A DNA stretch of 64,000 bases. Origin: Calditrichota bacterium (GTDB taxonomy: Bacteria > Electryoneota > AABM5-125-24 > Hatepunaeales > Hatepunaeaceae). This document shows, in pieces, positions 8,243 to 24,596 of this stretch (the first letter of the stretch is position 1; every line of letters starts with the position of its first letter). The notes beneath the pieces are model-generated. The model ran no database searches and was not told where the DNA came from. It was given only the letters and a program-made list of their open reading frames with translations. The position numbers and the translations under genes are program-made. Location of the stretch: assembly GCA_018644935.1 (NCBI GenBank), contig JABGPL010000004.1, positions 13,741 to 77,740 of the forward strand, written 5' to 3'.

Positions 8243-8592
8243 TTTTTCCTCCACAGAGCTGTGGTTTCCGGTTGATTAATTCAAACTTTGTTTGCTGGCG
8301 TTTATCGTAGAATGGGTATCATTTCAAGCCATTAAGCTCAGATGACATTCGAGATCAGCAGGATGGAAATCAGCCCATTGACCCTGCACTTCATCGGAAA
8401 AAGCCAAAAACTTCTAACCAATAAATATAATAAGGAAAAGAATCAAAATCAAAGGTGTTTTCATCAGTTCCCTAATTTTTCACTGGCGAAGTTAAATCAA
8501 AGTTAGAGGTGCAATGCACCTGACAGGTAAAATTTAGCAAATTTTTCTGTTTGGGTAAGTGTTTGTGCCCACATAAACAGAGTTTTCAGTCC

Positions 8593-9354: not shown

Positions 9355-9815
9355 TAAATGTAGCTCTTTTGTTTTGGTTTATTGTTTTGTGCCTGATGTG
9401 CTCCTCTAAAAGAAACACTCCCCGGGATGAATCACGAGCTATGTCACAATGGTTTATATTTGATACAAATCATTATATAAACCAAGCTGTCACATTATAC
9501 TAAATGACTGTAATGAAAGCAACCAACTTCATCACTCTCCGTTTGTTTCAAGCTTCAACAGATAAACACCAGATATTAGGTTTGAGGATCAATCATCCAC
9601 TGGCGCATGTCAATTATGTGAATGAAGAACTTCGATAATTTTGAATGCAACCAAGTTATGAAACGGCAGGCATACAGGTTCAGAGATATGGAGTTTTTCA
9701 ATCAAAAAATCATGGCTATTCAGGAAGCGAGGTACACTTTTGTTGGATGAACCTACATAGGACAAATTGCCACCATTGGTGAATCAATATGATATACAAC
9801 AAAACGACTCTATTC

Positions 9816-10307
9816 TCAGTAACTGAATTCGTTTTTTCCTACTTTTATCTTTTGAGTCTCTTTTTCGTTTCCTCTTGAGCGCCGTAATTCAATGAGATTC
9901 AGGACATTGTAACCTTGTTTGTGCAAGAGGTCAATTATGGCTTGGTTGTTAGGATGAATCCAGTTGTAGAGTGTAAAATTCCCGTTTTTTTGAGCAAGTT
10001 GTTCTGCTTGTTTAAATAGAGCAGAGCCTATTCCTTTGCGACGACATTTTGGTGAAACAAAAAGAGATTCAGCCCATACTACATCCTCAACAACACGGCA
10101 GACTACATATCCTACGACTTCTTCATTGTCATTTTCCGATACATAAATGGGGAAGTCATTACCTGTATAGTCGCACAATTCCTCATATGCCGCCTCTATA
10201 TTCACCTTGTGGGTCATGTTTCGTAAACCTGCCAGAGCAGAGCGGAATTCAGATATGAGCTGTATTAGGATTTGCTGGTCATCAGGATGGTATATTCGAA
10301 TTTTCAA
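9816..10307 (-). CDS. GNAT family N-acetyltransferase
   Basis: It has the acetyl-CoA motif RRKGIGSALFKQAEQLAQKNG and is 163 aa long. Confidence 0.8.
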   Translation of the reverse strand: MKIRIYHPDDQQILIQLISEFRSALAGLRNMTHKVNIEAAYEELCDYTGNDFPIYVSENDNEEVVGYVVCRVVEDVVWAESLFVSPKCRRKGIGSALFKQAEQLAQKNGNFTLYNWIHPNNQAIIDLLHKQGYNVLNLIELRRSRGNEKETQKIKVGKNEFSY

Positions 10308-10631
10308 TCAATGCTCCGTTAAAATGCTGTTGATATTAGGTTTTGTGTCGTGGATATTTGCTTCACTCATCCTCGCCTTTCTTTTCGGGGCGTAATCGCC
10401 AGCAGGTTATCATTTGTTTGCCAACATAAGACACCCAAGCCTGCCAAGAGCGTTCAACGATTATACGACTATTTAGCCTGCGTTAACACATGACGGATAA
10501 TCACCATGGTCTGGATTTCTGCCGGTTCTTCCCAGATGGGAAGCTCTGAAATTGAGCAAGGCCGCTCTTCCGAACTAGGGATCCGTTTATACGGTCAGAT
10601 TAACGGAATATACTTAGTAAATGACTTAGTA

Positions 10632-11132
10632 TCAATCTATGGTTTTGGGAATGGTTTTACCCAGGGTTAAAACATGATGACACTCACAGTCACCTCGGGG
10701 GATACACCTTTCGATAACGTACTCCAACTCAGGATTAAGACCTTTTACCAATGCGCGTTCCATTGAAGTATGGGCAGCACAGATTTCTGCATGCTCAAAT
10801 GGGTATGGACACTCCGGAACCATTATTGTCACACGGTTGTCAGTGAATTCTTTTACTTCTCCCTCAGAGCGCATGTTATTGAACACCTTCACCAAAAATA
10901 GCCCAACCCGGTTGATATCCCAGGGTTGATCATCCTTCCTCACTGAAGAAGCTATCTCTGACCCATATTCCAAACTCACTTCTCGTATCAGGTCGAGGCC
11001 ATCCTCACCATATCGTGTATAGATGGCCTCATATAATCCCTTAATTCTTCTCAGAAGTCCCTTTAGTACACCACGATATCTAACATCAAGAGGTACTTCT
11101 TCGATCTGAATATCAGATGGTAACTTGATCAC
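10632..11132 (-). CDS. ATC-hydrolase-like (L-2-amino-thiazoline-4-carboxylate hydrolase family) Cys-rich protein; last gene of the operon
   Basis: The C-terminal pattern CPYPFEHAEICAAHTSMERALVKGLNP...RCIPRGDCECHHVL resembles PF14196. This is recognised from memory only. Confidence 0.4.
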   Translation of the reverse strand: MIKLPSDIQIEEVPLDVRYRGVLKGLLRRIKGLYEAIYTRYGEDGLDLIREVSLEYGSEIASSVRKDDQPWDINRVGLFLVKVFNNMRSEGEVKEFTDNRVTIMVPECPYPFEHAEICAAHTSMERALVKGLNPELEYVIERCIPRGDCECHHVLTLGKTIPKTID

Positions 11133-11158
11133 CGTGAATCCCGGGTTTAATTAGATTT

Positions 11159-11572
11159 CTATTCGTGGGAATGATTACATCCATGACCTTGACCAGATCC
11201 ACCACCCCCACAAGCTTCTCCTGGAGTCATCAACGTCAGGTTTCCTGCAATGAGGTTTTGAACTACCGGCTTCACATCCGGACAGACTGTGTCGAGATAT
11301 ACGTCTATTCCAACTTGATTGAATCCCTGTAGTGGACGCATGCCAATCCCAGCTACAATAAGGGCATTAACATTTAATTTTGCGAGAATGTTCACCGGAA
11401 CCATGCAACCACCCTGTGAATGGTCCTGATTTGCAATCATCGAAACATCACACACCTCACCGTCCTTGACGTCAATCAAGGTAAATGCTTTACAATGTCC
11501 AAAGTGCTCTGATCTTTTACTATCCAAACCACCAGAACCATCGGATGGAACTGCTATTCTTCCGTTCTTCAA
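11159..11572 (-). CDS. NifX/NifB-C-terminal-like (dinitrogenase FeMo-cofactor-binding fold) protein with a Cys/His-rich tail
   Basis: RIAVPSDG...SEHFGHCKAFTLIDV...NALIVAGIGMRPLQGFNQVGIDVY is the typical Nitro_FeMo-Co domain pattern. The tail is CGGGGSGQGHGCNHSHE. Confidence 0.7.
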   Translation of the reverse strand: MKNGRIAVPSDGSGGLDSKRSEHFGHCKAFTLIDVKDGEVCDVSMIANQDHSQGGCMVPVNILAKLNVNALIVAGIGMRPLQGFNQVGIDVYLDTVCPDVKPVVQNLIAGNLTLMTPGEACGGGGSGQGHGCNHSHE

Positions 11573-11626
11573 TGTATTTCCTTTGACTTATTTTGGTTTA
11601 ATTCTCTCTTTTTGTGAGAGTGTTTC

Positions 11627-12016
11627 CTATTTCCTGTTCTTTCCTTCCCCTTTTCCGGTACCACATCCTGAATGGACGCTTTTCTTCATTGTTGGGGAGG
11701 ACAATTCATGTATTTCATCGTTCTGGACTCTGCTGACAGCATCAGTGGCTGTCATTCCAATACAACAATATACTTTCCAGCCCATCAATTTGACATCGGA
11801 AAAAGCCCCTGGACCTATGTTTCCGACAATCAAACGTTCGATATTGTATTTGCTGAATTGATCTACCCCATGTCGAGGTTGATCGTGACCGACACCTTTA
11901 ACAGATTCAAATGTCATGTCATCTGAATCAACGATCAGGAAGCAGTTGGAGTGCCCAAATCTTCTCGAGATCGTGGACGCAATTTCTGCTTCATTTACTG
12001 CTACAAGATATTTCAT
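11627..12016 (-). CDS. NifX/NifB-C-terminal-like protein (second paralogue)
   Basis: MKYLVAV...ISRRFGHSNCFLIVD...ERLIVGNIGPGAFSDVKLMGWKVY. The tail is HSGCGTGKGEGKNRK. Confidence 0.65.
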   Translation of the reverse strand: MKYLVAVNEAEIASTISRRFGHSNCFLIVDSDDMTFESVKGVGHDQPRHGVDQFSKYNIERLIVGNIGPGAFSDVKLMGWKVYCCIGMTATDAVSRVQNDEIHELSSPTMKKSVHSGCGTGKGEGKNRK

Positions 12017-12024
12017 TTATTCCT

Positions 12025-12390
12025 CTAAATATAATCGTGTGTGCCTAAAATAACCGGGATATTTAATTTCGCTTCAAGTTTTCCCTTCAATGCATCAAGG
12101 TCGAGAGGGCACTCACCGTGTTCCTTTGCAAGCGTAACGCATGTTCCAAAGTGTATAGCATCAACTTGATTCCCTAATCCCTCAACAACTTTGCATATCA
12201 TAGGCACCCGAGGCATAGCCAATCCCGGGCAGTCACCACAGTCAGTCATTGCAACAACTTCTATTTCCTCTTCGTGATTAGCAAATTTGCCATTCTTTAA
12301 AGGGATTGCTTTGAAACATTTTGCACAAGCAATACATGTATGATCCTTGATTCGTTTGCAGAAGAAAATTGCGATCTTTTTCTTTTTCAT
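12025..12390 (-). CDS. CGGC-domain-like Cys-rich putative metal/redox protein
   Basis: It is 121 aa long with several Cys motifs (CIACAKC, CGDCPG, GTCVTLAKEHGECP), which resembles the CGGC domain (PF08821). Confidence 0.5.
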   Translation of the reverse strand: MKKKKIAIFFCKRIKDHTCIACAKCFKAIPLKNGKFANHEEEIEVVAMTDCGDCPGLAMPRVPMICKVVEGLGNQVDAIHFGTCVTLAKEHGECPLDLDALKGKLEAKLNIPVILGTHDYI

Positions 12391-12402
12391 GGTTCACATC
12401 CT

Positions 12403-12789
12403 CTAGCCTATCAACTCTTTAACTTTTTCCAGCACAGCATCACGATCAATAGGTTTTTCAAAATATCCCGCTGGTGGACTGACCTGCTTTCTCGTTTCAA
12501 TAAATTTCTTAAAATCGCTGCGGTATCCTGTAATCATGATTACAGGGATTTCATTTGTCGTCGGATCATCATGTAGATTACGATACATCCTCACTCCCGA
12601 TTCCTCCGGCATCAATATGTCAAGGGTTATTAAATCGGGATGGTTGGCTTTTGCCTTTTCATATCCTTTTTTACCGTCCGTTGCGGAGACAACATTGTAT
12701 CCATTTGTTGTAAAAAATGTAACCAGATAAGATACTACATCCGGCTCGTCCTCAACTACGAGGATTGTTTTTAATGATTTTTCTTCCAT
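12403..12789 (-). CDS. Single-domain response regulator (CheY-like receiver)
   Basis: ILVVEDEPDV ... DLITLDILMP ... PVIMITG ... FEKP. Confidence 0.9.
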   Translation of the reverse strand: MEEKSLKTILVVEDEPDVVSYLVTFFTTNGYNVVSATDGKKGYEKAKANHPDLITLDILMPEESGVRMYRNLHDDPTTNEIPVIMITGYRSDFKKFIETRKQVSPPAGYFEKPIDRDAVLEKVKELIG

Positions 12790-12802
12790 TATATCTCCTT
12801 AT

Positions 12803-13318
12803 CTACTTGTTTAGTTTACCTTTTAGAACGTCAAGTGCTCGTTGAAGGGCTTCTTTATCTGCACCCTTCATCGCCCTTGAGAGCTCGTTATGTAATTCTT
12901 TAGGTTCTGATTCTTGTGGTTCTAATGGTTCCAATCCAAGCAACTTGCGAACTGCCGAAACATAGGAATGAGGACTAACAGGCTTCTCAAGGTAGACACC
13001 AGGACCAGACATCGTCATCTCGTCAAAGTCTGCTTTGCCCAGTTCATCACGGGCATGCCCTGTTACTGTCAATACTGGTATTTTCGAGAGAGATTTGTCT
13101 TTCTGCAACTCTCGATAACATTTTACTCCTGAATGTTTTGGCATAACCAGATCTAACGATATCAGATCCGGAAGAATACGCCTTGCCGTTTCAAGACCCT
13201 CATTTCCATCTGAGGCTGTTTCAACAATGAAACCAGCATTTTCAAGGGCAGTTCGTAAATAACTCCGAATGTCAGATTCGTCATCAACAACCAGTATTCG
13301 TTTTTTTTCTTCAGTCAT
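12803..13318 (-). CDS. Response regulator receiver protein with a short helical C-terminal extension
   Basis: ILVVDDESDI ... DLISLDLVMP ... PVLTVTG ... LEKP. Confidence 0.9.
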   Translation of the reverse strand: MTEEKKRILVVDDESDIRSYLRTALENAGFIVETASDGNEGLETARRILPDLISLDLVMPKHSGVKCYRELQKDKSLSKIPVLTVTGHARDELGKADFDEMTMSGPGVYLEKPVSPHSYVSAVRKLLGLEPLEPQESEPKELHNELSRAMKGADKEALQRALDVLKGKLNK

Positions 13319-13333
13319 TGTTAATTCTCCAGA

Positions 13334-15151
13334 TCAATCTTCTTTATTTCTTGTGAGTGAATTTCCTGCCAGAGTCTCCAGTCGATCACGAGGTAGCCGG
13401 ATGCGGAATATCGAGCCCTCATCGGGACTGGACTCAACCTCTATGGTTCCACCATGTTCTTGGATAATTTTCCTTGTGGTTAATAATCCAAGACCTGTCC
13501 CTTTTCCACCTTTCGTTGTGAAAAAGGTGGTAAACACCTTTTCTTGGATTTCAGAGTCCATTCCAGAGCCGTTATCAATAGATTCAAAAATGATTTGATC
13601 TTTATCTTCATATGTCCTCAATGTAACACGACCTCCACCTTCTTCCCGCATCAGCGCTGCATCGATTCCATTGGAGATAAGATTCGTCAAACAGGTTTCC
13701 ATCCCACTGGGATCAAGAAACGCCGGCCTGATACCTTCACCAGGCTCTAAAATCAATTCCACACCTTGATTTCTGGCTGTAACTTTGTATAAATCTATTA
13801 TATCTCGGGATATATCATTCGGGTCAACGAGTTTCAATTCGGGAAGTCGACCTTTGGCGAAACTCAGGAAGTCTTTTACAAGTGTAGTTGTCTTTTCAAA
13901 ATTGCGCTGCAATATCTCCCAGCCTTCAAGAATGAGTTCCGAATTTCCCTGCTGAAGTCCCAGATTAGCCATATACATGCCACCTTCCAAACCCATCAAC
14001 ATGTTTTTAATGGTGTGCGCGAGTCCCGCAACAGTTTGACCTACTGCTCCGAGACGTTCAGCATCAAGTTTTTCCGCTTCCAGACGTTTCATATCCCGCA
14101 TATCCTGGAGGAAGGCAGCCTTCCCTAATTTCTTGCCTCTGCTTTTAAGCTCAACCGCCCTGAATCTGACGGGGATTTCTTCGTTACTTTTTGACAATAT
14201 TGATGTTGACAAAAAATCTAATGAATCCTCATTTATCAATCCGGTTCCGCCAAACTCATCTGGCAGCATTTTCAGTAGGCTTTCAACAGATGGCATTCGT
14301 CTTGCCTTCCAGTCCAGCAATTCTCTTGCTGCGGGATTCATGATCTTCGACTCACCGCCGGAATCGACTGCAATTATTCCAGTGGCAGAGTTACTTATCA
14401 AACTTTCATAAAGGTCATGTGCCTGCTTGAGTTGACCCTCTAACTCGCGAATATCAGTAATATCTGTCGCAATCTCAATCACGTGAGCAATGCCATCTTT
14501 CTCTCGTGACAATGGTGATGTTGTCACTACGTAATGTGTCTGAGTCCCATCCTGCCTTATTCCGACTTGATTTGAAACATGCTCGCTACCATCACTGAAT
14601 GTCTCAACAGCTGGACAACTCGGGCAAATCGTTTTCCGTTTTTTGTAAACTTCAAAGCAATGCCGGTTCTGTACATCCTCACCAAATGTTCGCCGGAATT
14701 TTTCATTGGCGCGTATGATGCGAAAGTCATTATCAATTACTGTTATGTAACATGGAACGCGATCAAACAGAAGGTCGTATTCCCGTTGCCAACGGCGGGT
14801 TTCAGTTAGATCGGTGGTCATCTCCATGACATATTTGATCTGCCCGTCGTTATCATACAAAGGAGCAAGATGTGCTACATAGTGACGTGTAATTCCATGA
14901 CGGTCAATTCCAACTCCGTCTACAACTCGAACTTTTCCATCCCGGAATGTATCTAAAGCCTGACAATGTGAGCAAGGTTTATATACACCCTTGTATATTT
15001 CATAGCAGTGTCTGCCTTTCCAGTCGCCAAAGTAATCTTCAAAATTATTATTGGCGGTCATGACGTTAAAATCCCGATCAATTACTGCAAGATTGAAGGG
15101 CATTTGTTCGAATAACTCGCGACCGAAAAATTTCTCCATTTGCTCAGTCAT
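13334..15151 (-). CDS. Multi-PAS sensor histidine kinase (two Cys-motif PAS domains, one further PAS, HisKA, HATPase_c)
   Basis: The ORF track gives 13334..15205. The likely start MTEQMEKFF at 15151 overlaps the upstream stop by 8 nt. H-box GLAHTIKNML. ATPase boxes NLISNGIDA, DNGSGM and GKGTGLGL. The C-x10-C-x2-C motif occurs twice. Confidence 0.85.
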   Translation of the reverse strand: MTEQMEKFFGRELFEQMPFNLAVIDRDFNVMTANNNFEDYFGDWKGRHCYEIYKGVYKPCSHCQALDTFRDGKVRVVDGVGIDRHGITRHYVAHLAPLYDNDGQIKYVMEMTTDLTETRRWQREYDLLFDRVPCYITVIDNDFRIIRANEKFRRTFGEDVQNRHCFEVYKKRKTICPSCPAVETFSDGSEHVSNQVGIRQDGTQTHYVVTTSPLSREKDGIAHVIEIATDITDIRELEGQLKQAHDLYESLISNSATGIIAVDSGGESKIMNPAARELLDWKARRMPSVESLLKMLPDEFGGTGLINEDSLDFLSTSILSKSNEEIPVRFRAVELKSRGKKLGKAAFLQDMRDMKRLEAEKLDAERLGAVGQTVAGLAHTIKNMLMGLEGGMYMANLGLQQGNSELILEGWEILQRNFEKTTTLVKDFLSFAKGRLPELKLVDPNDISRDIIDLYKVTARNQGVELILEPGEGIRPAFLDPSGMETCLTNLISNGIDAALMREEGGGRVTLRTYEDKDQIIFESIDNGSGMDSEIQEKVFTTFFTTKGGKGTGLGLLTTRKIIQEHGGTIEVESSPDEGSIFRIRLPRDRLETLAGNSLTRNKED

Positions 15152-17009
15152 TGCACTTACTGCGGCTGAGGGGAGGCAACACCATTCTTTTACCAACCAA
15201 ATCACTTTTACTCTTTATCAGAACATCTGCATCAACAAGATCGCGTTGTCCCTCATGGCATGTTTCGCATCGAGAAAGAACAGGCTTCTCTTTCTCTACA
15301 GCCACTTGCACGTGACAATCAATACACACCATATGCATTGCTTCAGCATAACTGTTTGCCTCGTATGTTTCGATCTTAATTAATGAGCCCTGTGGGATTA
15401 AATTTTTGTGACAATAATCGCATTTTTTTGCTGAGTCGATATCTCGGATGGATGCTTTATCATGACATTCCACACAGGCAAGTTTGCCTCCATTTGGAGA
15501 TGAATGCCAATCGTGCTTAAAGGCATCGCTCGGAAGATACATATCATTATGACATTGACTACATGCGGTATTTTTATCCCTTGGTTGATTCATGTGGTGG
15601 CATTTGCTGCATGATTTGTCTTCACCATTTCGCCTGATATGTTCTTTGTGGGCAAAGGCGGTCCCAAAACCATCCCGGTTACCGTCTATCCAAAGTGTGT
15701 CGCCACCCCGAGCTTGATGCACAGGGGTTGGGTCCACACCTCTGCTCTCTGCAGGTTCCCACGAGATAAACGCAAAGGCAAATGCTGCGGCAATAATGAA
15801 CCCGAACGAATACTTTGTTCTGGCGGAAATTCCCGGTGTACCAAGCCATGTACCATCAACGGAGTGGAAATGAGGCAGTTGGGTTGGCGAAGCATCTGGA
15901 TCAGTCGGCCGGGTTTCCCAGATATTAAACCTCTCAATCATATATAAAAAAACTAAGGAAGCTCCGGCAATTACAGCAGCGGTAATAGCAATCTCTGTCC
16001 AAGCGGGAAGATATACGGTCTCGCCACGATTTATATGTACAAGCCCACCGACGTTAATCCGGTTAAGAACAATTCCCGTCACACCAGTAATTGCCACAGT
16101 CATTAAACCTGCGGCTTTTGTCCTGACATATCTGAACGACAACATCACCGTCGGGATCACAGCAACCATAGCAAGCTCAACCCAGAACATTTTGACCTGC
16201 CACTGTCCAGATCCTAATTGATCTAACTGACCCCGGATCAATAAATCACTTACTCGAATAACTAAATATGTCATGAACACCCATCTTGCTGCTGATCCTA
16301 TTTTCTCAAGAAGATCAACTTCTGGTTTGCGGCGATATAACCATGCTGTGAAGAGACTCTCAAATGTCACCATCATGAGTCCCAACCCGATAGCAGAGAT
16401 GAAAAAGATCACCGGTAGTATAGGTGTATACCAGAGGGGATGGACGTTGTATGGCATTATCAGAAACAGCGATCCCAGAGATGATTGATGCAGCGTTGAA
16501 AGTGCTATTCCGGCAATAACCAAAGGCAATCTGAGTTTGATGAGAACTTTACGTATCTTTGATAGAAAGCTGAACTCCTCTGCAGGAACAGGAAAAAATT
16601 CCATCAACAACACAGTCAGATACAACATCACACACCAACCGACTTCAAACAGTGGAGAATGAGGATTCCAGAATACAATCATGTGCCAGATATTCCAGGG
16701 CAATCCCAGATCAAACAATAATCCGAATGCCACAGCAATGTAACCAAGAAAGGCAGTAAGAACTGCGGGGCGGACGATTGAATGGAACTTTTCCAGTTTG
16801 AAGATATATACCGTAGCAGTCAGTACGAATCCTCCTGCAGCCAATGCCACCCCGCTCATTACGTCAAATCCAATCCATATCCCCCACGGAGTATTATCCG
16901 AAAGGTTCGTCGTTGATCCAAGTCCGAGCAGAAAACGGGCTACTCCAACGGCAGCTCCAACACCGATAATCATCCAGAGAATCATTTTGAAATTACGGAC
17001 TCTATTCAT
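15144..17009 (-). CDS. NrfD/DsrP/HmcC-like polytopic membrane protein fused to a C-terminal hexahaem cytochrome c domain
   Basis: About 420 aa of hydrophobic helices carry the NrfD-like N-terminus (GLGSTTNLSDNTPWGIWIGFDV). Six CXXCH motifs follow: CSKCH, CSQCH, CVECH, CDYCH, CIDCH, CETCH. The probable start MNRVRNFK at 17009 overlaps the upstream stop (17002) by 8 nt. Confidence 0.8.
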   Translation of the reverse strand: MNRVRNFKMILWMIIGVGAAVGVARFLLGLGSTTNLSDNTPWGIWIGFDVMSGVALAAGGFVLTATVYIFKLEKFHSIVRPAVLTAFLGYIAVAFGLLFDLGLPWNIWHMIVFWNPHSPLFEVGWCVMLYLTVLLMEFFPVPAEEFSFLSKIRKVLIKLRLPLVIAGIALSTLHQSSLGSLFLIMPYNVHPLWYTPILPVIFFISAIGLGLMMVTFESLFTAWLYRRKPEVDLLEKIGSAARWVFMTYLVIRVSDLLIRGQLDQLGSGQWQVKMFWVELAMVAVIPTVMLSFRYVRTKAAGLMTVAITGVTGIVLNRINVGGLVHINRGETVYLPAWTEIAITAAVIAGASLVFLYMIERFNIWETRPTDPDASPTQLPHFHSVDGTWLGTPGISARTKYSFGFIIAAAFAFAFISWEPAESRGVDPTPVHQARGGDTLWIDGNRDGFGTAFAHKEHIRRNGEDKSCSKCHHMNQPRDKNTACSQCHNDMYLPSDAFKHDWHSSPNGGKLACVECHDKASIRDIDSAKKCDYCHKNLIPQGSLIKIETYEANSYAEAMHMVCIDCHVQVAVEKEKPVLSRCETCHEGQRDLVDADVLIKSKSDLVGKRMVLPPLSRSKCND

Positions 17010-17769
17010 TATCGGTACCCTCCTGATCATTCTTCCTGCGTTGATTTTCCATGCGACGACCAATAACCCAACTTACACCTGCCATAACAGATCCCATTCC
17101 GACAAAGGCAAATGGAACGGCTTTCATTGCCGTTGATGTCCTTTCCGGAAGAGGTTTATCGCCCAGATGTTGCCCATAGGATAGGCAAGACAGATCGGTG
17201 TCTGATATGTATAGAACTTGTGAACCTCCAATTTCATGTTCACCCCAAATCCGGTCGATGTATTTATTCGGATTTCCTTTAATCCTTCTGCGAGCTTCTG
17301 CAAGCAGCTCATCCCTGTCACCAAATATTGTAGCCTGCGTTGGACATGTTTCTGTACAGGCTGGTTCTTCACCTTTGGCAACATGTTCAGCACAGAGAAT
17401 ACACTTTCGCACATAAGGAATTTGCTGATCCCAATCATAGCGGGGAATCCCATAGGGACATGCCATCATACAATAGCGACATCCCATGCATTTATCTCCG
17501 TCATATACGACAGCACCATCTTTGTTCTTCCGTAAAGCTCCGACAGGACACGCTGAAACACAGGCCGGTTCCAGACAATGCCGACACTGCTTGCGGATAT
17601 ATTTCTTTTCCGGTTTTTCTACTATTGAAGTCCAATTTCTAGCGGATAAGCCATCATCAGAATTCCATCGTCTTGGGACGGCATTTTCCAGATCATGACG
17701 CTTCTTGCAGGCAACCACACATTCGCGGCATCCCACACATTTTGTTGTATCAGTTAATATTGCTTTCAT
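17002..17769 (-). CDS. Four-cluster [4Fe-4S] ferredoxin subunit (NrfC/DsrO/HmcB-like) with a C-terminal TM helix
   Basis: CVGCRECVVAC, CRHCLEPACVSACP, CMGCRYCMMACP and CILCAEHVAKGEEPACTETCP. The C-terminal hydrophobic segment is AVPFAFVGMGSVMAGVSWVIG. No twin-arginine leader is visible. Confidence 0.85.
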   Translation of the reverse strand: MKAILTDTTKCVGCRECVVACKKRHDLENAVPRRWNSDDGLSARNWTSIVEKPEKKYIRKQCRHCLEPACVSACPVGALRKNKDGAVVYDGDKCMGCRYCMMACPYGIPRYDWDQQIPYVRKCILCAEHVAKGEEPACTETCPTQATIFGDRDELLAEARRRIKGNPNKYIDRIWGEHEIGGSQVLYISDTDLSCLSYGQHLGDKPLPERTSTAMKAVPFAFVGMGSVMAGVSWVIGRRMENQRRKNDQEGTDNE

Positions 17770-18539
17770 TAAACACTCACCTCTTCTTTCTCAGGTGTCA
17801 AATCTTCGTAAACTAAACGTGGTTTTTCCACCCATGTCGGTCGATTTTTCAGACCAAGTGTTTCGATAACCCTGCCGCCAGCACCTTTAGGGAATTTCCA
17901 ACCAATTGCAGTGACAAGTTGTGAGAATGGCATCAGGACGCAATGCGCAATTTTTGTGAATGGTATCATGACCATAATCAAATTTGCAGAATACACGTGA
18001 ATCAACATGAGCAATAGATAAGCATTAGGACTAATTGATCCATTACTGCAGATATATCCAGTCAGGAAAGGTATAATCAGCAGGATTGGCCATAAATAGT
18101 CCTGCTTTCTGCTGATAGCACGAGCGGGTTGATAAAACAGGCGCATCAGAAATAGCAGAATGCTGCAAATGATTACCGTCAGTGTTAAATTATCCGCAAA
18201 CAATTTCGGAATAGCAGAAACGGCAAATCCAGTCACATTCTTCCAAAGGAGAAGGTGTGCTGCCAGAAAAAGGGGAACAATAATCAGTCCAATATGAAAA
18301 ATCAATGATATCAGACTATATACAGGCCGTTTATTAAATAGTCGTTTTAGCGGAAAGAGCCATGAAATAGTTTTTCCAATAAGGTCTTTCCAGGGTATGA
18401 TTTTATCCTCATTACGCCTGAGTGCTTCTATCATGCCTATGATTGTCAGTAGAAAAATCCTTGTCAATCCAAGCAACATCAAAGCAAGACAAAGCCGAAA
18501 CAAAGGTCCCTGTCCAAATCCAATCCATGTCTCCAGCAT
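17769..18539 (-). CDS. NarI/DsrM/HmcE-like membrane cytochrome b subunit
   Basis: About six TM helices, with conserved His pairs in helices (SLIFHIGLIIVPLFLAAH; MLIHVYS...FTKIAH), as in the nitrate-reductase gamma family. Confidence 0.7.
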   Translation of the reverse strand: MLETWIGFGQGPLFRLCLALMLLGLTRIFLLTIIGMIEALRRNEDKIIPWKDLIGKTISWLFPLKRLFNKRPVYSLISLIFHIGLIIVPLFLAAHLLLWKNVTGFAVSAIPKLFADNLTLTVIICSILLFLMRLFYQPARAISRKQDYLWPILLIIPFLTGYICSNGSISPNAYLLLMLIHVYSANLIMVMIPFTKIAHCVLMPFSQLVTAIGWKFPKGAGGRVIETLGLKNRPTWVEKPRLVYEDLTPEKEEVSV

Positions 18540-18558
18540 CAGTTATCCTCCGTTTCTA

Positions 18559-20010
18559 TCAGGTTAATGAATGGTGTATTTCTTTTTCATCTTCGACATT
18601 CTCAAAGATGATGGCTTGGTACAATAGATCATGCAGCCCGACAATTTCGCAATCGACGTTGTTGTCTTCCATCAATTCCTTAAGTTGTTTTTTACAGTTC
18701 GCACAGGGCGCGACACAATACTTTGCTCCCGTTGCGCGAATCTGTTCGGCTTTGGCTCGACCGCCGATTGTTGTTCGATAGGGACGAATTTCATCAATTG
18801 AAACTGTTCCACCACCTCCACCGCAACAAATATTATCACGTCCGCTTGGTGTCATCTCAACATAGTCCTGACAAAATGCTTTGAGCAGCTCGCGTGGTTG
18901 ATCCACTATCCAACCTGAACGAGCGAAATTACATGGATCGTGATAGGTAACTTTTTCCTTGATAACATTCGGTTTGATCTTCAAGCGACCTTCTTTCCAA
19001 GCTTTCCATGAATACTCTAATATGTTAACTACAGGTAGTGCTTCTTTTCCACCACAATAGGTTGGATAGAAATACTTCGCACTGCGGGAAGCATGGCCGC
19101 ATTCACCGATAAGGATAGTCTTAATATTCAGGCGTTTAGTCTCTGCCTCAATTTTATGCAGTACCTCTTCAAGTATGTGATCGCTGTAAAAGAGGCCATA
19201 ATTAATGCCATCGAAATATCCGGTACCGATCGTCCAACTGTCACCCGTTGCTTTGAACACGGCAGCGTTACCCATCAGTGTTTCTGCCTCCATTAGGAAA
19301 TCTGAAACGGCTGGTAGAAATAGATATTCCGCACCGTCCTGATCGATGGGGAAGGGGATATTTATTCCCTTTTCTTCCTCCATATCCTCTGTCAGAAACT
19401 CCAATGTATCTAAAAGCGCAGGAACCGGTATTGCTGATGTATTGCCTGACTTCCCGATCAATTGCTCGCGTGTACTTACTACGAGTGCCCGGGGCGTGAT
19501 TCCAAGCTCAGACAGTATGTACCTTCCCAGATGAGTTATAATGGCATGATCAATTCCCATCGGGCATTCAATGCTACAACGTTTGCATGCGGTACAATTG
19601 TAAAATGACTCCGCCATCTCCTGAATTTGTTCATTCTGTAGTCCGGGATCTCCGAATACTCGACCTCTCAGCATTCCAGAAATGGTAAAGTGTCGTCGAT
19701 AAACCTTTAGCAGAAGTTCGGAACGAAAACATGGGATGTCCTGCTCGTCTCCGGTTGCAAGATATATCTGACAATTGCTTGTGCAGCGAGAGCACTTTGC
19801 ACTGATCCGCACATAATGATCGAGAACTAATCGATAATTTGTATGTTTCAGAATAGCAGCAAATGCTTCAAGAAATCTCTGTGGACGATTTTCAAGAGCA
19901 AAATCTTCAACATGATATCTTACAGACAATTGCTGTTTTTCGATTACATTTTCTTTCTTGGGAGTTTTAAAAGCTCTTTCCCGTTCTTCTTTGTTAATCA
20001 AGAGATTCAT
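18559..20010 (-). CDS. HdrD/DsrK/HmcF-like Fe-S oxidoreductase with CCG domains
   Basis: Ferredoxin motifs CSRCTSNC and CTACKRCSIECP. CCG-domain signatures ECGHASRS, HDPCNFAR, CCGGGGG and APCANCKKQL. Confidence 0.85.
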   Translation of the reverse strand: MNLLINKEERERAFKTPKKENVIEKQQLSVRYHVEDFALENRPQRFLEAFAAILKHTNYRLVLDHYVRISAKCSRCTSNCQIYLATGDEQDIPCFRSELLLKVYRRHFTISGMLRGRVFGDPGLQNEQIQEMAESFYNCTACKRCSIECPMGIDHAIITHLGRYILSELGITPRALVVSTREQLIGKSGNTSAIPVPALLDTLEFLTEDMEEEKGINIPFPIDQDGAEYLFLPAVSDFLMEAETLMGNAAVFKATGDSWTIGTGYFDGINYGLFYSDHILEEVLHKIEAETKRLNIKTILIGECGHASRSAKYFYPTYCGGKEALPVVNILEYSWKAWKEGRLKIKPNVIKEKVTYHDPCNFARSGWIVDQPRELLKAFCQDYVEMTPSGRDNICCGGGGGTVSIDEIRPYRTTIGGRAKAEQIRATGAKYCVAPCANCKKQLKELMEDNNVDCEIVGLHDLLYQAIIFENVEDEKEIHHSLT

Positions 20011-20012
20011 AA

Positions 20013-20834
20013 CTAATTCTCTACCTGGTCAATGTTGATTTTATCATGGTTTTTTATCCTGCCCTTCAAGGGAGGTAATTGTTCTTTTTTGGTCGGGTGT
20101 ACTGCATTAGGATCAGTTGAGGTCGGATCGAGAAGCTCGACTTCGTAATCCTGACATTTTTTGATCATGTTTGAAGTTGAGTTGTGAACAAAAACCCTTG
20201 CATTGTATTCCCTGCTCGTAACATGACTAAATTCCTGAATTTCGGATTCGACCCTATAACTGTGTGCTCCACAACAAATGGCAACTCGAACATTTTTACC
20301 GCAGACAGGGCACTGAATTGTTGCATTGAGATCAATTGGGTAAGAATCAGATTCATTAGCTCGATCTAAGCTCCAACCGTGATTTGTAAATAGGTTTACA
20401 GTCCAGTCAACAAGATCCGAGTTATGGGGCTGAAGTTGGATGTCTCCGTTGTTATTATAAGAGGATTTAATTTGCATTTTACCTGCGAGATATTCATATA
20501 GGGAATCATTTGCAGAACCGGTTGCATTCTCAACCACATGGCACCCTGATGCCTGTAATAGTTGGCGTTCCTGCCCTTCTATCCCATTACAAATTAAAAC
20601 ATTTATGCCTGAATTTTTCAAAAGACGAATTCGTGCCAAACCTCCAGTTTCATCAACATTTAATTCACTGAATGTTATTTTATTGCGAGGTCCTATCTTC
20701 CATATCCGAAACAGTCTTGTGGCAGAGAAGCATGGTGCAACTTCATCTCCAAAGCAGGTGATCGCGATTTTTATTTCCTCACTCAGATTCATATCTGAAT
20801 TAAGCTCATCTTTAATGTGCTTCTCAGTATTCAA
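20013..20834 (-). CDS. First gene of the operon: NifX-like N-terminal domain fused to an uncharacterised Cys-containing C-terminal domain
   Basis: The N-terminus is IKIAITCFGDEVAPCFSATRLFRIWKI...INVLICNGIEGQERQLLQASGCHVV (Nitro_FeMo-Co-like). I do not recognise the C-terminal 140 aa (CPVCGKNVRVAICCGAH). Confidence 0.55.
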   Translation of the reverse strand: MNTEKHIKDELNSDMNLSEEIKIAITCFGDEVAPCFSATRLFRIWKIGPRNKITFSELNVDETGGLARIRLLKNSGINVLICNGIEGQERQLLQASGCHVVENATGSANDSLYEYLAGKMQIKSSYNNNGDIQLQPHNSDLVDWTVNLFTNHGWSLDRANESDSYPIDLNATIQCPVCGKNVRVAICCGAHSYRVESEIQEFSHVTSREYNARVFVHNSTSNMIKKCQDYEVELLDPTSTDPNAVHPTKKEQLPPLKGRIKNHDKINIDQVEN

Positions 20835-20883
20835 TGTTGCAGGTTAAACTCGGTTTGAGTTACGAAATGTAAATAATGCTATA

Positions 20884-20899
20884 TGCTAATAGTGTGCCA
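20884..20899 (-). promoter_or_regulatory. Sigma-54 (-24/-12) promoter of the 12-gene operon
   Basis: The minus strand reads TTGGCACactatTAGCAt, which is GG-N10-GC spacing with one mismatch to TGGCAC-N5-TTGCA. It lies about 50 nt upstream of the start codon at 20834, and a sigma-54 activator gene sits immediately upstream. Confidence 0.8.
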
Positions 20900-20963
20900 A
20901 ATTTCACAAAGATTGTTATACGTTGAAAATATGTGCGATAGGGATTTATAACTTAACTATGGG

Positions 20964-21023
20964 TGTTGCAATGCAACAGTTTGCGACTGTTCATGCAACA
21001 CTATTATGTTGCATGATGCAACA
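20964..21023. promoter_or_regulatory. Cluster of TGTTGCA/TGCAACA inverted repeats (candidate enhancer/UAS for the bEBP)
   Basis: TGTTGCAaTGCAACA (20964-20978), TGCAACA (20994-21000) and TGTTGCAtgaTGCAACA (21007-21023). They lie 65-140 bp upstream of the -24/-12 element. Confidence 0.65.
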
Positions 21024-21178
21024 TATTGTAGCAGTGTTAGAAATGTTGTGGGGTTTGGGAAAATTACAATTGGGAGAGAAATTGAAACCATTTCTGAGAA
21101 TGAAACGATTCAATTCGAGGATGAACTACGTCTTACAAATCTGAATTATTGTGTTATGAATGCTGTATTGATAATCCA

Positions 21179-22600
21179 CTATTGTACATCATATTTGCGC
21201 ATTTTTCTCCATAATGTAGACCGGTTCATACCAAGCATTTCCGCAGCTTTTGTTTTATTTCCACCGGATTGTTTAAGTGCCTGGAGAATTAATGCTCCTT
21301 CATCAACCACTGTTCTATCTAAAAATGAGCTCTGTAAAGAATATTTGTTTTGATCACTCATCTTGTCCTGAGATTGCAGTTCCACCGGCAGGTGTTCTAC
21401 TCCGAGGGTTCTGCCATGACAGATAGCATAGCCATATTCGATGATGTTCTCCAATTCACGGATGTTGCCTGGATATTCATGGTTTATTAATATTGACATT
21501 ACAACAGGAGTAACGCCTACAATATTTTTGCCCTTGCGCGCATTGAAAAGTCTAATGAAGTGATCCACTAAATAGGGGATATCCACTCGGCGATCTTTGA
21601 GTGGTGGTAGATCGAATCGGATGACAGCCAGACGGAAATACAAGTCATTCCTGAAATTGCCTTGCTCGACTAATTCCTTCAGATTGCGATTTGTTGCAGC
21701 AACTATCCGGATATTTGCTTTCACAGTTTTAACACTGCCAAGAGGCTCGTATTCTTTCTGCTGAACCAGCCTGAGAAGCTTAACCTGAGTTGAAAGAGGG
21801 AGCTCGCCAATTTCATCTAAGAAAACTGTTCCGTTCTCTGCAATGGTGAGTTTACCGGGTTTATCCTTCTTGGCATCTGTAAAAGCACCCTTTGTATAGC
21901 CGAACATCTCTGACTCAAAGAGTTGTGGAGGGAGGGCCCCGCAATTGATTACAACATAAGGTTCTTTCTTACGGGGAGATAGATTGTGAATCGCTTGAGC
22001 AAACAGCTCTTTTCCTGAACCTGATGGTCCCTGGATCAAGACGCTACTTTCACTCTCTGCAACATCAGGAAGAATTGATAATATCTTTAGAAGTAAGGGA
22101 CTTTTTGTAATGATATCTTCAAATGAGTAGTTTTTTTCAAGTTGTTTGCGGAGGTCTTCAATTGCACTTAGATCGCGGAACGTTTCAACTGCTCCGAGTA
22201 CATTACCGTCATCATCGCGCAGAACAGCCGTCGAAATTGATATCGGAACACGACGACCGTTGCTATCGAGAATATGTACAGGTATGTCGATCGCTTCCTG
22301 CCCGGTTTGCATACTCTTCTCAAGCAAGCAGCCAGTTTCACAAATGTCAGAATGAAATACTTCATAACATTTTTTTCCGATTGCCTGTTTTGAAGGCGTA
22401 CCGGTGATTCTCTCTGCTGCTGGATTAAAGGATGTTATGCACCTTTGGTCATCGATGGTGAACACACCATCTGCAATTGAACTTAAAATGGTTTTGAAAA
22501 AACGATTTTCCTGGTCTGAGCCATTCATACTTTTGTACTTTTCCAAGTTGGAGGATCGGCTGACGGTTTCAATAAAAGTTAGGTTTAGATTCTCTATCAT
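21179..22600 (-). CDS. Sigma-54-dependent transcriptional activator (PAS, AAA+, Fis-type HTH; no receiver domain)
   Basis: Walker A GPSGSGKELFA, the GAFTDA loop (GAFTGA-type), ESEMFGY, and the C-terminal HTH NKTKAAEMLGMNRSTLWRKMRKY. The N-terminal PAS carries CYEVFHSDICETGC. Confidence 0.9.
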   Translation of the reverse strand: MIENLNLTFIETVSRSSNLEKYKSMNGSDQENRFFKTILSSIADGVFTIDDQRCITSFNPAAERITGTPSKQAIGKKCYEVFHSDICETGCLLEKSMQTGQEAIDIPVHILDSNGRRVPISISTAVLRDDDGNVLGAVETFRDLSAIEDLRKQLEKNYSFEDIITKSPLLLKILSILPDVAESESSVLIQGPSGSGKELFAQAIHNLSPRKKEPYVVINCGALPPQLFESEMFGYTKGAFTDAKKDKPGKLTIAENGTVFLDEIGELPLSTQVKLLRLVQQKEYEPLGSVKTVKANIRIVAATNRNLKELVEQGNFRNDLYFRLAVIRFDLPPLKDRRVDIPYLVDHFIRLFNARKGKNIVGVTPVVMSILINHEYPGNIRELENIIEYGYAICHGRTLGVEHLPVELQSQDKMSDQNKYSLQSSFLDRTVVDEGALILQALKQSGGNKTKAAEMLGMNRSTLWRKMRKYDVQ

Positions 22601-23037: not shown

Positions 23038-23571
23038 ATGCCAAAGAGATATGAAGAACTCAACTACGCCCATTACCTAACATTTTCATGTTACAAGAGG
23101 TATAGACTATTTACGAACGAGGACCTTTGCAACCTTTTTGTGAACCACTTGGATAGAGCTCGTGACCGTCGAAAATTTGATCTGTGGGCGTTTGTAATTA
23201 TGCCTACGCACGTTCATTTACTTATTCGACCATCAGTTGACGATTCAATTAGCAAAATCCTCATTTCCTTAAAGAAATCTTTCAGCTATGAAGCACTTCC
23301 TCGAATTAAGGACAACAATCCTGAACATTTTGCGCGATTGAGTATTTCAGAAAGAGGACATAAGGTCAGAAGATTTTGGCAGGTTGGTGGAGGGTATGAC
23401 AGTAACATATTCACAGCCAATATATTAAAAAGAAAAATCGATTACATGCACATGAATCCTGTCAAAAAAGGTCTTGTTAATGAGCCTGTTGAATGGCAAT
23501 GGTCAAGTGCAAGATTCTGGATTCAGAACATTTGCGATCCCTTAAGCCTGGATGATATCGAGATATTCTGA
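23038..23571 (+). CDS. REP-associated tyrosine transposase (RAYT; IS200/IS605 TnpA-like HUH Y1 transposase)
   Basis: It has the HUH motif VIMPTHVHLLIRP and the catalytic-Tyr motif IDYMHMNPVKKGLV. It is 177 aa long and flanked by REP hairpins. Confidence 0.85.
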   Translation: MPKRYEELNYAHYLTFSCYKRYRLFTNEDLCNLFVNHLDRARDRRKFDLWAFVIMPTHVHLLIRPSVDDSISKILISLKKSFSYEALPRIKDNNPEHFARLSISERGHKVRRFWQVGGGYDSNIFTANILKRKIDYMHMNPVKKGLVNEPVEWQWSSARFWIQNICDPLSLDDIEIF

Positions 23572-23619: not shown

Positions 23620-23684
23620 AAATCACATTCACCTCTAACGATATATTCAATGAAAACATTGTCTTATACTAATTGGAAATATTT

Positions 23685-24596
23685 ATGAAAGACGTTAGAT
23701 TTATGTGGCAAAAAAGGCTATCTGAAGCGTTCTCAGATGAAGAACATATAATTGGAAGATCTGTCCTCACTATGAGAGAGATTGACAAGAATATTGAACT
23801 CAGAATCGTTGAAAAATATCAGGGGTACGACCAAACAATACACGCATTTATTGAATATTGGTACCAGACCTTATCTGGTTTCCAAGAATCAGTTCCAGCT
23901 GAAGATGATCAACATCTCCTTCTTTATTTATCTGTCCTTGCACCAAGTTTTGGAAGATTTAGGCAGAGCTGGGAAGTTTTTCTTACCGGACATTATTTTG
24001 ATGCAATATCAATGCTCAGATCGGTGTACCAAACAGTGTTAATAATTGCAGCCGATCAAGATTCGAACTTTGATTTTCTTGGACAAGAGGACAATATCGG
24101 TCAAAATGTAGGACAAGCAACAGAGGAAAAAAGATCAAAAATCATACACAAAGGATTTGTATCCCTTGAAAAAGAGGCATCCAGATTAATTGTGGGTAAT
24201 AAAAGTGATTTGAAACAAGTCACAATCCAAAACCTCGAATATTTCTTGAGGATCATCCATAAAACAGTTCATCCCCTAAATCCACACATATCTTCAAACC
24301 TTCGAGTAGCATTTAATCGAAAACTCTCACTCTTCCCAGAACCTGATGATGATCAACTTTCTCAATACCTGAATATTTCCAACTTCATCGGTTGGATGAC
24401 TCTTAGGGTACTCTCTCTTTTCAATCGACATCAACAACTATTTAATGATGACTGGATGCGAAGAACAAAAGCTCTCGATGAGGCATTCGAGACACTCGTG
24501 GAAGGATTTGCAGAACTTGAAAAACCAATAGGTGAGGCTATTATTGAGTTGATTGATAAGAAATTTTCATTTAATAACTCAACCAAAGAAACATGA
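23685..24596 (+). CDS. Hypothetical all-alpha protein (low-GC cassette gene 1)
   Basis: The ORF track gives 23673..24596 (TTG); the first ATG is at 23685. I recognise no motif. Confidence 0.5.
   Translation: MKDVRFMWQKRLSEAFSDEEHIIGRSVLTMREIDKNIELRIVEKYQGYDQTIHAFIEYWYQTLSGFQESVPAEDDQHLLLYLSVLAPSFGRFRQSWEVFLTGHYFDAISMLRSVYQTVLIIAADQDSNFDFLGQEDNIGQNVGQATEEKRSKIIHKGFVSLEKEASRLIVGNKSDLKQVTIQNLEYFLRIIHKTVHPLNPHISSNLRVAFNRKLSLFPEPDDDQLSQYLNISNFIGWMTLRVLSLFNRHQQLFNDDWMRRTKALDEAFETLVEGFAELEKPIGEAIIELIDKKFSFNNSTKET

Follow-up and report, generated by a model that had tools for sequence, protein, structure and literature searches.

What purpose is served by an operon that packs the subunits of a transmembrane redox complex together with a histidine kinase, receiver proteins and a series of small NifX-like proteins? 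This question is raised by a 64,000-nucleotide stretch of DNA from a Calditrichota bacterium (contig JABGPL010000004.1, assembly GCA_018644935.1), which is called the window below. In sulfate reducers, the textbook routes for moving electrons across the membrane to a cytoplasmic thiol/trisulfide site are Hmc, Tmc and DsrMKJOP; for Hmc, both the physiological role and the direction remain under debate. Twelve open reading frames (ORFs) in the window, here named g1 to g12 in the direction of transcription, include relatives of all these systems, and the first-pass annotation of the locus described them as a self-contained electron conduit of the DsrMKJOP/Hmc type.

On the strength of sequence comparisons, we favour with moderate confidence a reading in which the locus is a sigma-54 operon under an OrpR-type redox-sensing activator whose core genes specify a transmembrane electron conduit of four subunits, a paralogous variant within the Hmc/DsrMKJOP family. 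The locus is best seen as a widespread four-gene core that is optionally joined by two regulatory layers and, in this lineage, by an accessory tail. The biology is not new in kind; the family is well defined and uncharacterised, and it merits a name and experimental tests. The ORFs of the window were searched with Pfam and NCBIfam profiles, with NCBIfam equivalog cut-offs serving as the orthology threshold, and NCBIfam comparisons are written below as score/cut-off in bits.

All twelve ORFs lie on the minus strand, from position 20792 (or 20834 with an alternative start for g1) down to 10632. Neighbouring genes are spaced by -8 to +54 nt, with 8-nt overlaps at g4/g5 (17002/17009) and g5/g6 (15144/15151). 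Base 17769 is common to g3 and g4, and 2 nt separate g1 from g2, which overlap in relatives of the locus. The ORF layout confirms the same-strand order, the gaps and the two 8-nt overlaps as they were first annotated, and from its spacing we take it that the twelve-gene block is a real, tightly packed operon.

The four-gene core

The genes on which the argument turns are the following.

18559-20010, minus strand: g2, cytoplasmic HdrD/DsrK-like CCG iron-sulfur protein (Pfam Fer4_8 and CCG, 42.9 bits)
17769-18539, minus strand: g3, NarI/HmcE/TmcC-like dihaem cytochrome b membrane subunit (HmcE 112/275, TmcC 110/240)
17002-17769, minus strand: g4, HmcB/HybA/FdnH-like protein with four [4Fe-4S] clusters, a C-terminal membrane anchor and no signal peptide (Pfam Fer4_11)
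15144-17009, minus strand: g5, HmcC/HybB-like NrfD protein with ten transmembrane (TM) helices, followed by TM11 and a periplasmic hexahaem c3-type domain (Pfam NrfD and Cytochrom_CIII)

The g2 protein scores 304/400 against DsrK, 210/735 against TmcB and 198/750 against HmcF. It carries two ferredoxin-type four-cysteine motifs and the C-Xn-CC-Xn-C-X2-C pattern that marks CCG proteins, and neither a membrane segment nor a signal peptide is predicted for it. Its ligands (C73/76/80/94, C139/142/145/149, C304, C360, C395-396 and C436/439) are present in at least 98% of 44 homologues; for the core as a whole, ligand conservation was read from sets of 44-53 homologues. The g3 protein reaches 21.2 bits against Pfam Nitrate_red_gam, just under the cut-off of 22.9, and it has the two histidine pairs of a dihaem cytochrome b, H82/H95 and H181/H199, which are found in 96-98% of 52 homologues. 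The g4 protein scores 247/420 against HmcB, 210/263 against HybA and 116/200 against DsrO, and all 16 of its cysteines are invariant in homologues. When solved structures were searched by sequence, g4 gave FdnH-type matches alone, with FdnH itself (1kqf_B) the nearest, while g2 gave a weak match and g3 and g5 gave none.

The g5 protein is a fusion. Its NrfD part (PF03916, 64 bits) aligns over the full length of the HmcC (313/550) and HybB (269/450) models and scores 107/570 against QrcD, and its cytochrome domain has a faint HmcA match (27 bits) and six CXXCH motifs that are invariant across homologues. No other ORF in the window has two or more such motifs. Hydropathy and the positive-inside rule place the N terminus inside, followed by ten NrfD helices, a cytoplasmic linker of about 35 residues, TM11 and the hexahaem domain outside. 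The helix positions agree with those of a low-confidence AlphaFold model (14 sequences, predicted local distance difference test score (pLDDT) 54), from which helix positions alone were used, with no fold search. Ten helices with this charge pattern, plus an eleventh, place g5 in the HybB/HmcC/QrcD branch, whose ten-helix NrfD proteins have a canonical orientation with the iron-sulfur partner docked on the periplasmic side (PMC8076601). An N-terminal NRVRNFK sequence in g5 was considered as a twin-arginine translocation (Tat) signal and rejected, as its second arginine is not conserved. In public annotation the fusion is called a "Ni/Fe-hydrogenase cytochrome b subunit" or an "NrfD/PsrC anchor".

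The resemblance to DsrMKJOP and Hmc that was first noticed is thus borne out by the best NCBIfam matches. Because all four proteins score best against these families and yet fall below the cut-offs, the core is most simply viewed as a paralogous variant, and Hmc or Dsr function is not simply transferable to it. The profile searches also uphold the other module assignments made at the outset, namely the PAS kinase, the receivers, the CGGC protein and the NifX-like proteins in addition to the HdrD/DsrK-like, NarI-like, four-cluster ferredoxin and NrfD/six-haem subunits; the weak one is the ATC-hydrolase-like label given to g12.

The NrfD::hexahaem protein falls into more than 8000 clusters at 90% identity, and the best 120 of these, at about 57-81% identity, all have both domains. 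A scan for related loci, taking one genome per species, returned 80 loci (L numbers in this text denote homologous loci and contigs), and 54 species-level loci were counted in which a g5-type fusion gene is preceded by g4 and g3 homologues. The order g2-g3-g4-g5 is identical in 51 of the 54, and the three exceptions are cut by contig ends. The loci come from about ten phyla, with representatives in Acidobacteriota, Ignavibacteria, Kapabacteria, Zixibacteria, Kryptoniota, Gemmatimonadota, Planctomycetota, Eisenbacteria and Fibrobacteria. The four-gene complex is distributed much more widely than Hmc, Tmc or DsrMKJOP.

Conservation beyond the core is graded. The kinase and receiver genes directly follow the core in 31/54 loci from several phyla (g7 is linked to the core in 31 loci and g8 in 29), a related activator gene lies nearby in 18/54, and a g1 homologue lies directly upstream of g2 in 15/54. 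CGGC genes occur near four cores and g11-type genes near three, and homologues of g10 and g12 were found near none of the 54. In relatives at 69-81% identity, the order from the activator gene through g1 and the core to the kinase and both receivers is kept and the tail varies. The full twelve-gene order is seen only on three identical metagenome contigs of the same organism, so the neighbourhood search replaces the proposed twelve-gene entity with a conserved core of four.

A second NrfD family appeared in the same scan (L061-L085, for example L064 at 9063-15000). It is about 47% identical to g5, has no cytochrome domain and is preceded by a g4-like ferredoxin gene. Receiver and enhancer-binding activator genes lie about 3 kb downstream in most of these loci, which makes this another ferredoxin/NrfD module with sigma-54-type regulators.

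Hmc is among the closest described systems. It also combines a c3-type multihaem cytochrome, a tail-anchored four-cluster ferredoxin (HmcB), the ten-helix HmcC, the NarI-like HmcE and the CCG protein HmcF. The best NCBIfam matches of g3, g4 and g5 are HmcE, HmcB and HmcC, and the hmc operon likewise ends in its own regulators, rrf1 and rrf2 (PMC10924467). However, the gene order here is reversed (F-E-B-C::A), the cytochrome has 6 haems rather than the 16 of HmcA and is joined by an additional transmembrane helix to the NrfD subunit, HmcD is missing and no small hydrophobic ORF lies between the core genes, g4 lacks the N-terminal signal region of HmcB, and HmcB, HmcC, HmcE and HmcF scores are all below the equivalog cut-offs. 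The family also reaches far outside the sulfate reducers.

DsrMKJOP has the same five functions (M, K, J, O and P), and DsrK is the model against which g2 scores best; the core often lies inside dsr clusters beside dsrAB, dsrC, dsrN and dsrMKJOP. The differences are that g3 and g5 have no DsrM or DsrP match, that the DsrK and DsrO scores fall short of their cut-offs, and that a hexahaem c3-type domain stands in place of the trihaem DsrJ. TmcABCD similarly ties a CCG protein and a NarI-like cytochrome b to a periplasmic c3-type cytochrome (TmcB 210 and TmcC 110 bits), but it has TmcD and no NrfD/ferredoxin pair, and the scores are far under the cut-offs of 735 and 240.

A further group comprises Nhc, Qrc, an octahaem three-gene module and the Geobacter complexes Cbc6 and CbcMNOPQR. 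These differ from the present core in that the cytochrome is a separate protein, the ferredoxin comes either with a Tat signal of its own or with a Tat partner (QrcB), and the NarI/CCG pair is absent in most. Like the core, Cbc6 holds cytochrome b and HdrD-like subunits. What they share with the core is a ferredoxin and a cofactor-less NrfD protein that serve a periplasmic multihaem cytochrome with no molybdoenzyme (PMC10924467, PMC6303296). For the Cbc complexes, the roles in physiology have been described as unknown (PMC13591261), and NrfD-like proteins of acidobacteria have been sorted as DsrMKJOP, QrcABCD, HydB and DmsC, with no separate class for such a module (PMC10564751). The combination had been thought not to be described as a named complex. 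In agreement with this, we found no name or characterisation of the module in NrfD reviews, in acidobacterial, Melioribacter, MBNT15, ANME and Tat papers or in a Geobacter review, although an earlier description is possible.

Predicted redox-responsive regulation

The elements upstream of the operon and the regulatory genes within it are listed here.

20884-20899, minus strand: sigma-54 -24/-12 promoter TGGCACactatTAGCA, one mismatch from TGGCAC-N5-TTGCW
20971-21023, no strand assigned: probable upstream activator sequence, four TGTTGCAT/ATGCAACA copies forming palindromes
21179-22600, minus strand: sigma-54 enhancer-binding activator with PAS-AAA+-HTH architecture (Pfam PAS_9, Sigma54_activat, AAA_lid_14 and HTH_8)
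13334-15151, minus strand: g6, soluble PAS-PAS histidine kinase (Pfam PAS_4, PAS_9 and HATPase_c)
12803-13318, minus strand: g7, receiver-only response regulator with a conserved C-terminal helix (Response_reg; best NCBIfam match DVU0259/DivK-like)
12403-12789, minus strand: g8, receiver-only response regulator (Response_reg; DVU0259/DivK-like)

A consensus scan alone is weak evidence for the promoter, as the window contains 41 sites with at most two mismatches where 30 would be expected. However, -24/-12 elements are present at the equivalent position upstream of g1 homologues in other genomes; the element in L090 is a perfect consensus, TGGCACataacTTGCA, and close matches occur in L086, L088, L014, L015 and L021. 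In addition, 4 of the 8 copies of TGTTGCAT in the window lie 72-140 bp upstream of the promoter, and TGTTGCA/TGCAACA clusters are also found upstream of g1 homologues in L015, L016, L024, L086 and L090. Because the repeats are upstream of the promoter and both features recur in homologous loci, the promoter call is convincing. The promoter with the GG-N10-GC pattern and the activator gene that had been placed ahead of the operon are thus both present, the first backed by homologous loci and the second by Pfam.

Two other sites in the window could belong to further sigma-54 targets. A perfect consensus, TGGCACTCCTATTGCT, lies at 53043-53058 on the plus strand inside the 3' part of a WD40-repeat gene and about 700 bp upstream of an HDOD-domain gene (53748-54647), and a one-mismatch site at 51458-51473 (plus strand) lies about 200 bp upstream of the start of the WD40 gene (51676).

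The activator gene is located 344 nt upstream of the operon on the same strand, and its product has no receiver domain. Its PAS domain contains the signature C78-Y-E80-x6-C87-x3-C91, whose cysteine and glutamate spacing is identical to C52/E54/C61/C65 of OrpR, a comparison made through the published OrpR residue numbers rather than by sequence alignment. The motif is kept in 12 of 18 core-associated activators, and from the rarity of cysteine we estimate that about 2 in 10,000 proteins of such size would match it by chance. NCBIfam has no OrpR-specific model, and the top match of the activator there is PrdR, under the cut-off. OrpR has been shown experimentally to be a [4Fe-4S] PAS redox sensor that is active only at low redox potential and requires C52, C61 and C65, with a conserved acidic residue at position 54 (PMC8359166). 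The activator is probably an OrpR-type redox sensor based on an Fe-S cluster.

The likeness to OrpR extends to the PAS-AAA+-HTH architecture with C-x-[DE]-x6-C-x3-C, to the sigma-54 promoters that are served, and to the presence of PF02579 (orange-protein family) genes in the target operon (PMC8359166, PMC6345978). The target operons differ. The OrpR regulon of D. vulgaris consists of two orp operons only, coding for MinD-like Fe-S ATPases, the orange protein (ORP) and MrpORP, with no membrane redox complex, and the operon described here has no Mrp- or MinD-type ATPase.

A second dedicated sensor is encoded downstream of the core. Both PAS domains of the g6 kinase carry C-[YF]-E-x8-C-x2-C, at residues 49 and 165, a motif related to that of the activator and kept in 24 of 30 core-associated kinases. 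HisKA was not detected in g6 by Pfam, and an H-box (AHTIKN) is recognisable by eye. The g7 and g8 proteins have no output domain.

The same data bear on whether the block is a single functional unit. It might instead consist of three unrelated adjacent units (the redox complex, the two-component system and the ORP-like genes) that are transcribed and used independently. Such a composite would explain why the parts differ in phylogenetic distribution and why the tail is replaced by a methyltransferase gene in L090 and interrupted by DUF4405 and other genes in L088. However, the gaps of no more than 54 nt, the two 8-nt overlaps and the position of the kinase and receiver genes right after the core in 31 loci of several phyla, far above chance adjacency, make this quite improbable. 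A terminator scan likewise gave no convincing minus-strand terminator inside or just after the operon.

The predicted electron path and the dsr connection

The ligands needed for a continuous wire, from the predicted periplasmic haems c to the CCG site, are all conserved. From outside to inside, the wire would run through six haems c, the four [4Fe-4S] clusters of g4, the NrfD/HmcC-like subunit, which has no cofactor of its own and interacts with quinone, the two haems b of g3 and, in g2, two [4Fe-4S] clusters and the CCG site, which would hold a non-cubane cluster.

In the reading we favour, low ambient redox potential would leave the PAS cluster of the activator intact, and the activator in this state would bind the TGTTGCAT repeats and open the -24/-12 promoter. 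The four core proteins, which we infer to form one complex, would then connect a thiol/disulfide or trisulfide couple in the cytoplasm with the menaquinone pool and with the cytochrome c pool of the periplasm, in the way that has been proposed for Hmc and Tmc. The passage of electrons may be electrogenic, as has been proposed for QrcD, HybB and HmcC (PMC6303296). Where the core lies in dsr clusters, the cytoplasmic couple would most likely be DsrC. The CGGC, NifX-fold and g12 genes would be a lineage-specific add-on of orange-protein/IssA-like binders of metal-sulfur clusters that are co-regulated with the complex and stand outside the conserved machinery.

The linkage to dsr genes comes from the homologous loci. 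Immediately upstream of the core in L004 are dsrT-MKJOP and dsrN, and the upstream pattern is the same in L010, L011 and L023. L030, from Kryptoniota, has the order core, IS-like gene, dsrA, dsrB, dsrN, dsrL, dsrC, dsrT; its flanks were checked by Pfam and its dsrC was recognised from the C-terminal motif. In all, dsrAB lies within 10 kb of the core in 9/54 loci, a canonical DsrC (ending ...PTGCV) is encoded within about 11 kb in 5, and some dsr-type gene adjoins in up to 19/54 when DsrM-like and DsrN-only neighbours are counted. With the core placed inside such clusters, DsrC is a natural substrate for g2 there. A true DsrMKJOP coexists with the core in L004, and by tblastn the g2 and g4 proteins of the window are 32-33% identical to the DsrK and DsrO of that locus but 62-77% identical to the core's own copies. 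The core is therefore an additional complex rather than a replacement, much as Hmc and Tmc are in Desulfovibrio.

Additional DsrMK paralogues are a known theme in dsr loci, as in the DsrM2K2 paralogues found upstream of dsrAB (PMC6018796). For acidobacterial dsr loci, the legend to Fig. 2 of Hausmann 2018 mentions four numbered genes in synteny that code for conserved proteins without a known function (PMC6018796); these may be the core that comes after dsrN in L004.

These associations qualify the description of the locus as self-contained. Genes for molybdopterin, sirohaem and hydrogenase proteins are indeed absent among the genes of the 64-kb window, as had been observed, but the lack of a catalytic partner does not generalise to the family, and the linkage of homologues to dsr genes weakens the idea of a system that always stands on its own.

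An outward-facing function must also be considered. The NrfD/ferredoxin/hexahaem part could act as a quinol:cytochrome c oxidoreductase that oxidises menaquinol and feeds periplasmic or extracellular acceptors such as metals or an electrode, with the NarI/CCG part serving as a second input or a regulatory branch. For Melioribacter (PMC3534657) and MBNT15 (PMC9386147), a role as quinol:acceptor reductases has been proposed for NrfCD modules that have multihaem cytochromes but lack a molybdoenzyme, the nearest relatives HmcC and HybB are reversible quinone-interacting subunits (PMC6303296), and many lineages of the family have no dsr genes in the flanks. However, the CCG and NarI-like genes are as strictly kept as the NrfD and ferredoxin genes (51/54), and their catalytic cysteines and histidines are invariant, so these subunits are unlikely to be dispensable. 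The window encodes no other multihaem cytochrome, and the repeated dsr linkage points to a cytoplasmic sulfur substrate. We therefore view an outward oxidoreductase as unlikely.

The placement of g4 is a puzzle in the Hmc-like architecture. HmcB is a Tat-dependent tail-anchored protein (PMC10924467), and the Fe-S domain of g4 should likewise face the periplasm, given its homology to HmcB, HybA and FdnH, the positively charged residues that follow its C-terminal anchor and the canonical orientation of g5. However, g4 lacks the signal region of the HmcB, HybA, DsrO, NrfC and TtrB models, since its alignments to them begin only at profile positions 37-45 (37 for HmcB), and, over-extended ORF calls aside, 51/51 homologues start 10-13 residues before the first cluster motif. 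For the one relative without a signal that has been described, hitchhiking together with a Tat-signal Fe-Fe hydrogenase has been suggested (PMC10924467). Either g4 has an unrecognised export partner or route, or else it is a cytoplasm-facing subunit, an arrangement that would have no known precedent in the HmcC/HybB branch. The signal-less g4 is a clear open problem for Tat and hitchhiker biology.

Several of these observations dampen our enthusiasm for the redox-sensed conduit that we favour. All four subunits fall under the NCBIfam equivalog cut-offs, and the activator is likened to OrpR through residue numbers rather than the OrpR sequence. No Tat signal is present on g4 in the window or in any of the 51 homologues, and no Tat-signal partner is encoded in the window or recurrently near the core, such that the Hmc-like architecture may be wrong as to the placement of g4. 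Finally, at least 35 of the 54 core loci have no dsr gene within 10 kb, and none is present in the 64 kb of the window. Testable handles on the timing and purpose of such complexes are available in the recurrence of the core in dsr clusters (Acidobacteriota, Kryptoniota and others), in its own Cys-PAS two-component system and, for this lineage, in the activator with the OrpR signature immediately ahead of the promoter.

NifX-fold proteins, the operon tail and neighbouring genes

The remaining genes of the operon flank the core and the two-component genes.

20013-20792, minus strand (alternative TTG start at 20834): g1, NifX/orange-protein-fold domain with a Cys-rich C-terminal domain (PF02579, 29.7 bits)
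12025-12390, minus strand: g9, CGGC-domain Cys-rich protein, a lineage-specific accessory (PF08821, 78.9 bits)
11627-12016, minus strand: g10, NifX/orange-protein-family protein with a Gly/Lys-rich tail (PF02579, 43.2 bits)
11159-11572, minus strand: g11, NifX/orange-protein-family protein with a Gly/Cys/His-rich tail (PF02579, 63.9 bits)
10632-11132, minus strand: g12, conserved 166-aa protein, a borderline PF14196 relative with no Pfam or NCBIfam match

The ATG at 20792 is the more likely start of g1, a choice favoured by the alignment of homologues and by gene calls on L001. The g1, g10 and g11 proteins all pass the PF02579 gathering cut-off of 26.3 bits. In NCBIfam, the C-terminal domain of MrpORP is a further match for g1 and g11. 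An AlphaFold model of g1 (pLDDT 87.8) has an N-terminal domain that matches PH0822 (2yx6), NifX (a 9ian chain), NafY and the D. gigas ORP 2wfb; its C-terminal domain gave no confident structural match, only weak RuvC/RNase-H-like ones. C68, C161, C164, C173, C174, C213 and H249 are invariant in g1, and H177 is present in at least 90% of 43 sequences. Homologues of g1 recur in two distant groups of phyla, with only the PF02579 half present in Gemmatimonadota, and a functional tie between g1 and the CCG subunit g2 is possible.

The tail is the most variable part of the operon. L088, a relative at 69% identity, has CGGC, a 50-aa ORF, DUF4405, two NifX-like genes and the g12 orthologue downstream of these. 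L086 has two NifX-like genes and a truncated g12. In L088 (11916-17140), the 50-aa ORF is rich in Cys, His and Lys, the DUF4405 product is a membrane protein, and TauE, DUF364 and a second CGGC gene follow.

For g12 itself, Pfam is silent even at E<=10, which leaves the ATC-hydrolase identity that was first suggested without direct support. Of the 153 homologues found, 120 were listed, and PF14196 (ATC_hydrolase) is present in about 10 of these, at 60-67% identity.

The initial proposal was that the HdrD-like subunit may act on the co-encoded Cys-tailed proteins g9-g11 in a role analogous to that of DsrC. The g11 protein of the window ends in C-x10-C, the spacing found in DsrC, the small proteins are co-transcribed judging by position, and the NifX-fold g1 is translationally coupled to g2 in 15/54 loci and in all close relatives. 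However, the g11 orthologues in L086 and L088 have C-x6-C instead, and g10, whose orthologues are found in the same two loci, lacks its tail cysteine in L086. Outside close relatives, g9-g12 are almost never linked to the core. The family is also known for metal-sulfur clusters held non-covalently or by cysteine ligands (orange protein, IssA and MrpORP) rather than for a disulfide/trisulfide arm (PMC6345978). With small proteins of the orange-protein/IssA family whose Cys tails are not conserved in orthologues, the DsrC analogy is weak; we have set aside the tails as DsrC-like arms, and the proposed role is very doubtful.

More plausibly, g10 and g11 are metal-sulfur cluster binders that are co-regulated by the OrpR-type activator. 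Three kinds of characterised protein are known in the family: Orp8, with a non-covalently held Mo-Cu-S cluster, MrpORP, a binder of Fe-S clusters, and IssA, whose cationic tail binds thioferrate (PMC6345978).

This family membership suggests two further roles for the complex. It could have a non-respiratory function of the ORP type and supply low-potential electrons to build or unload metal-sulfur clusters on NifX-fold carriers, in keeping with OrpR-type regulation, three PF02579 genes and a CGGC gene in the operon and the placement of a PF02579 fusion directly ahead of the CCG subunit. Most cores, however, have no PF02579 neighbour, the subunit set is that of respiratory complexes, and the function of the ORP complex is itself not established, MrpORP being only putatively involved in cell division (PMC6345978). 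Among the explanations weighed here, this is the one to which we give the least credence.

In the second, the NifX-fold proteins would be cytoplasmic partners of the CCG subunit. This would apply chiefly to g1, which is coupled to g2 in lineages of the Bacteroidota-related (FCB) group and in Gemmatimonadota, and in the window also to g10 and g11, with the complex driving from the membrane the reductive loading, unloading or repair of metal-sulfur or persulfide groups on these carriers. Linked to this idea, the signal-less g4 would mark an undescribed export route or a cytoplasm-facing Fe-S subunit. We consider the proposal improbable, but if true it would provide a DsrC-independent counterpart of the DsrK/DsrC couple.

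An Rfam scan of the window gave no matches. Between 9500 and 23000, the window has 23 terminator-like sites, each a hairpin followed by a T-run, against 10.3 +/- 3.0 expected. Most are on the plus strand, antisense to the operon, and the excess is probably compositional, since the plus strand is T-rich there (negative AT skew).

About 440 nt upstream of the activator gene, on the opposite strand, is an ORF for an IS200-like Y1 transposase (23038-23571, plus strand; PF01797, E=1.7e-7). It is followed by two ORFs with no Pfam match (23673-24596 and 24691-25371). Elsewhere the window holds housekeeping genes and genes for TPR proteins, a C25 peptidase and cargo of type-IX secretion. This content, together with the nearest named homologues (Calditrichota, Ignavibacteria and Zixibacteria), assigns the organism to the FCB group of phyla. 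The regions 2213-8254 (minus strand) and 28193-36538 (plus strand) encode a 2013-aa gingipain-type C25 peptidase with Por_Secre_tail and three large proteins, of which two contain beta-helix repeats and the third a PKD-like domain; type-IX-secretion sorting domains are present in two of these three.

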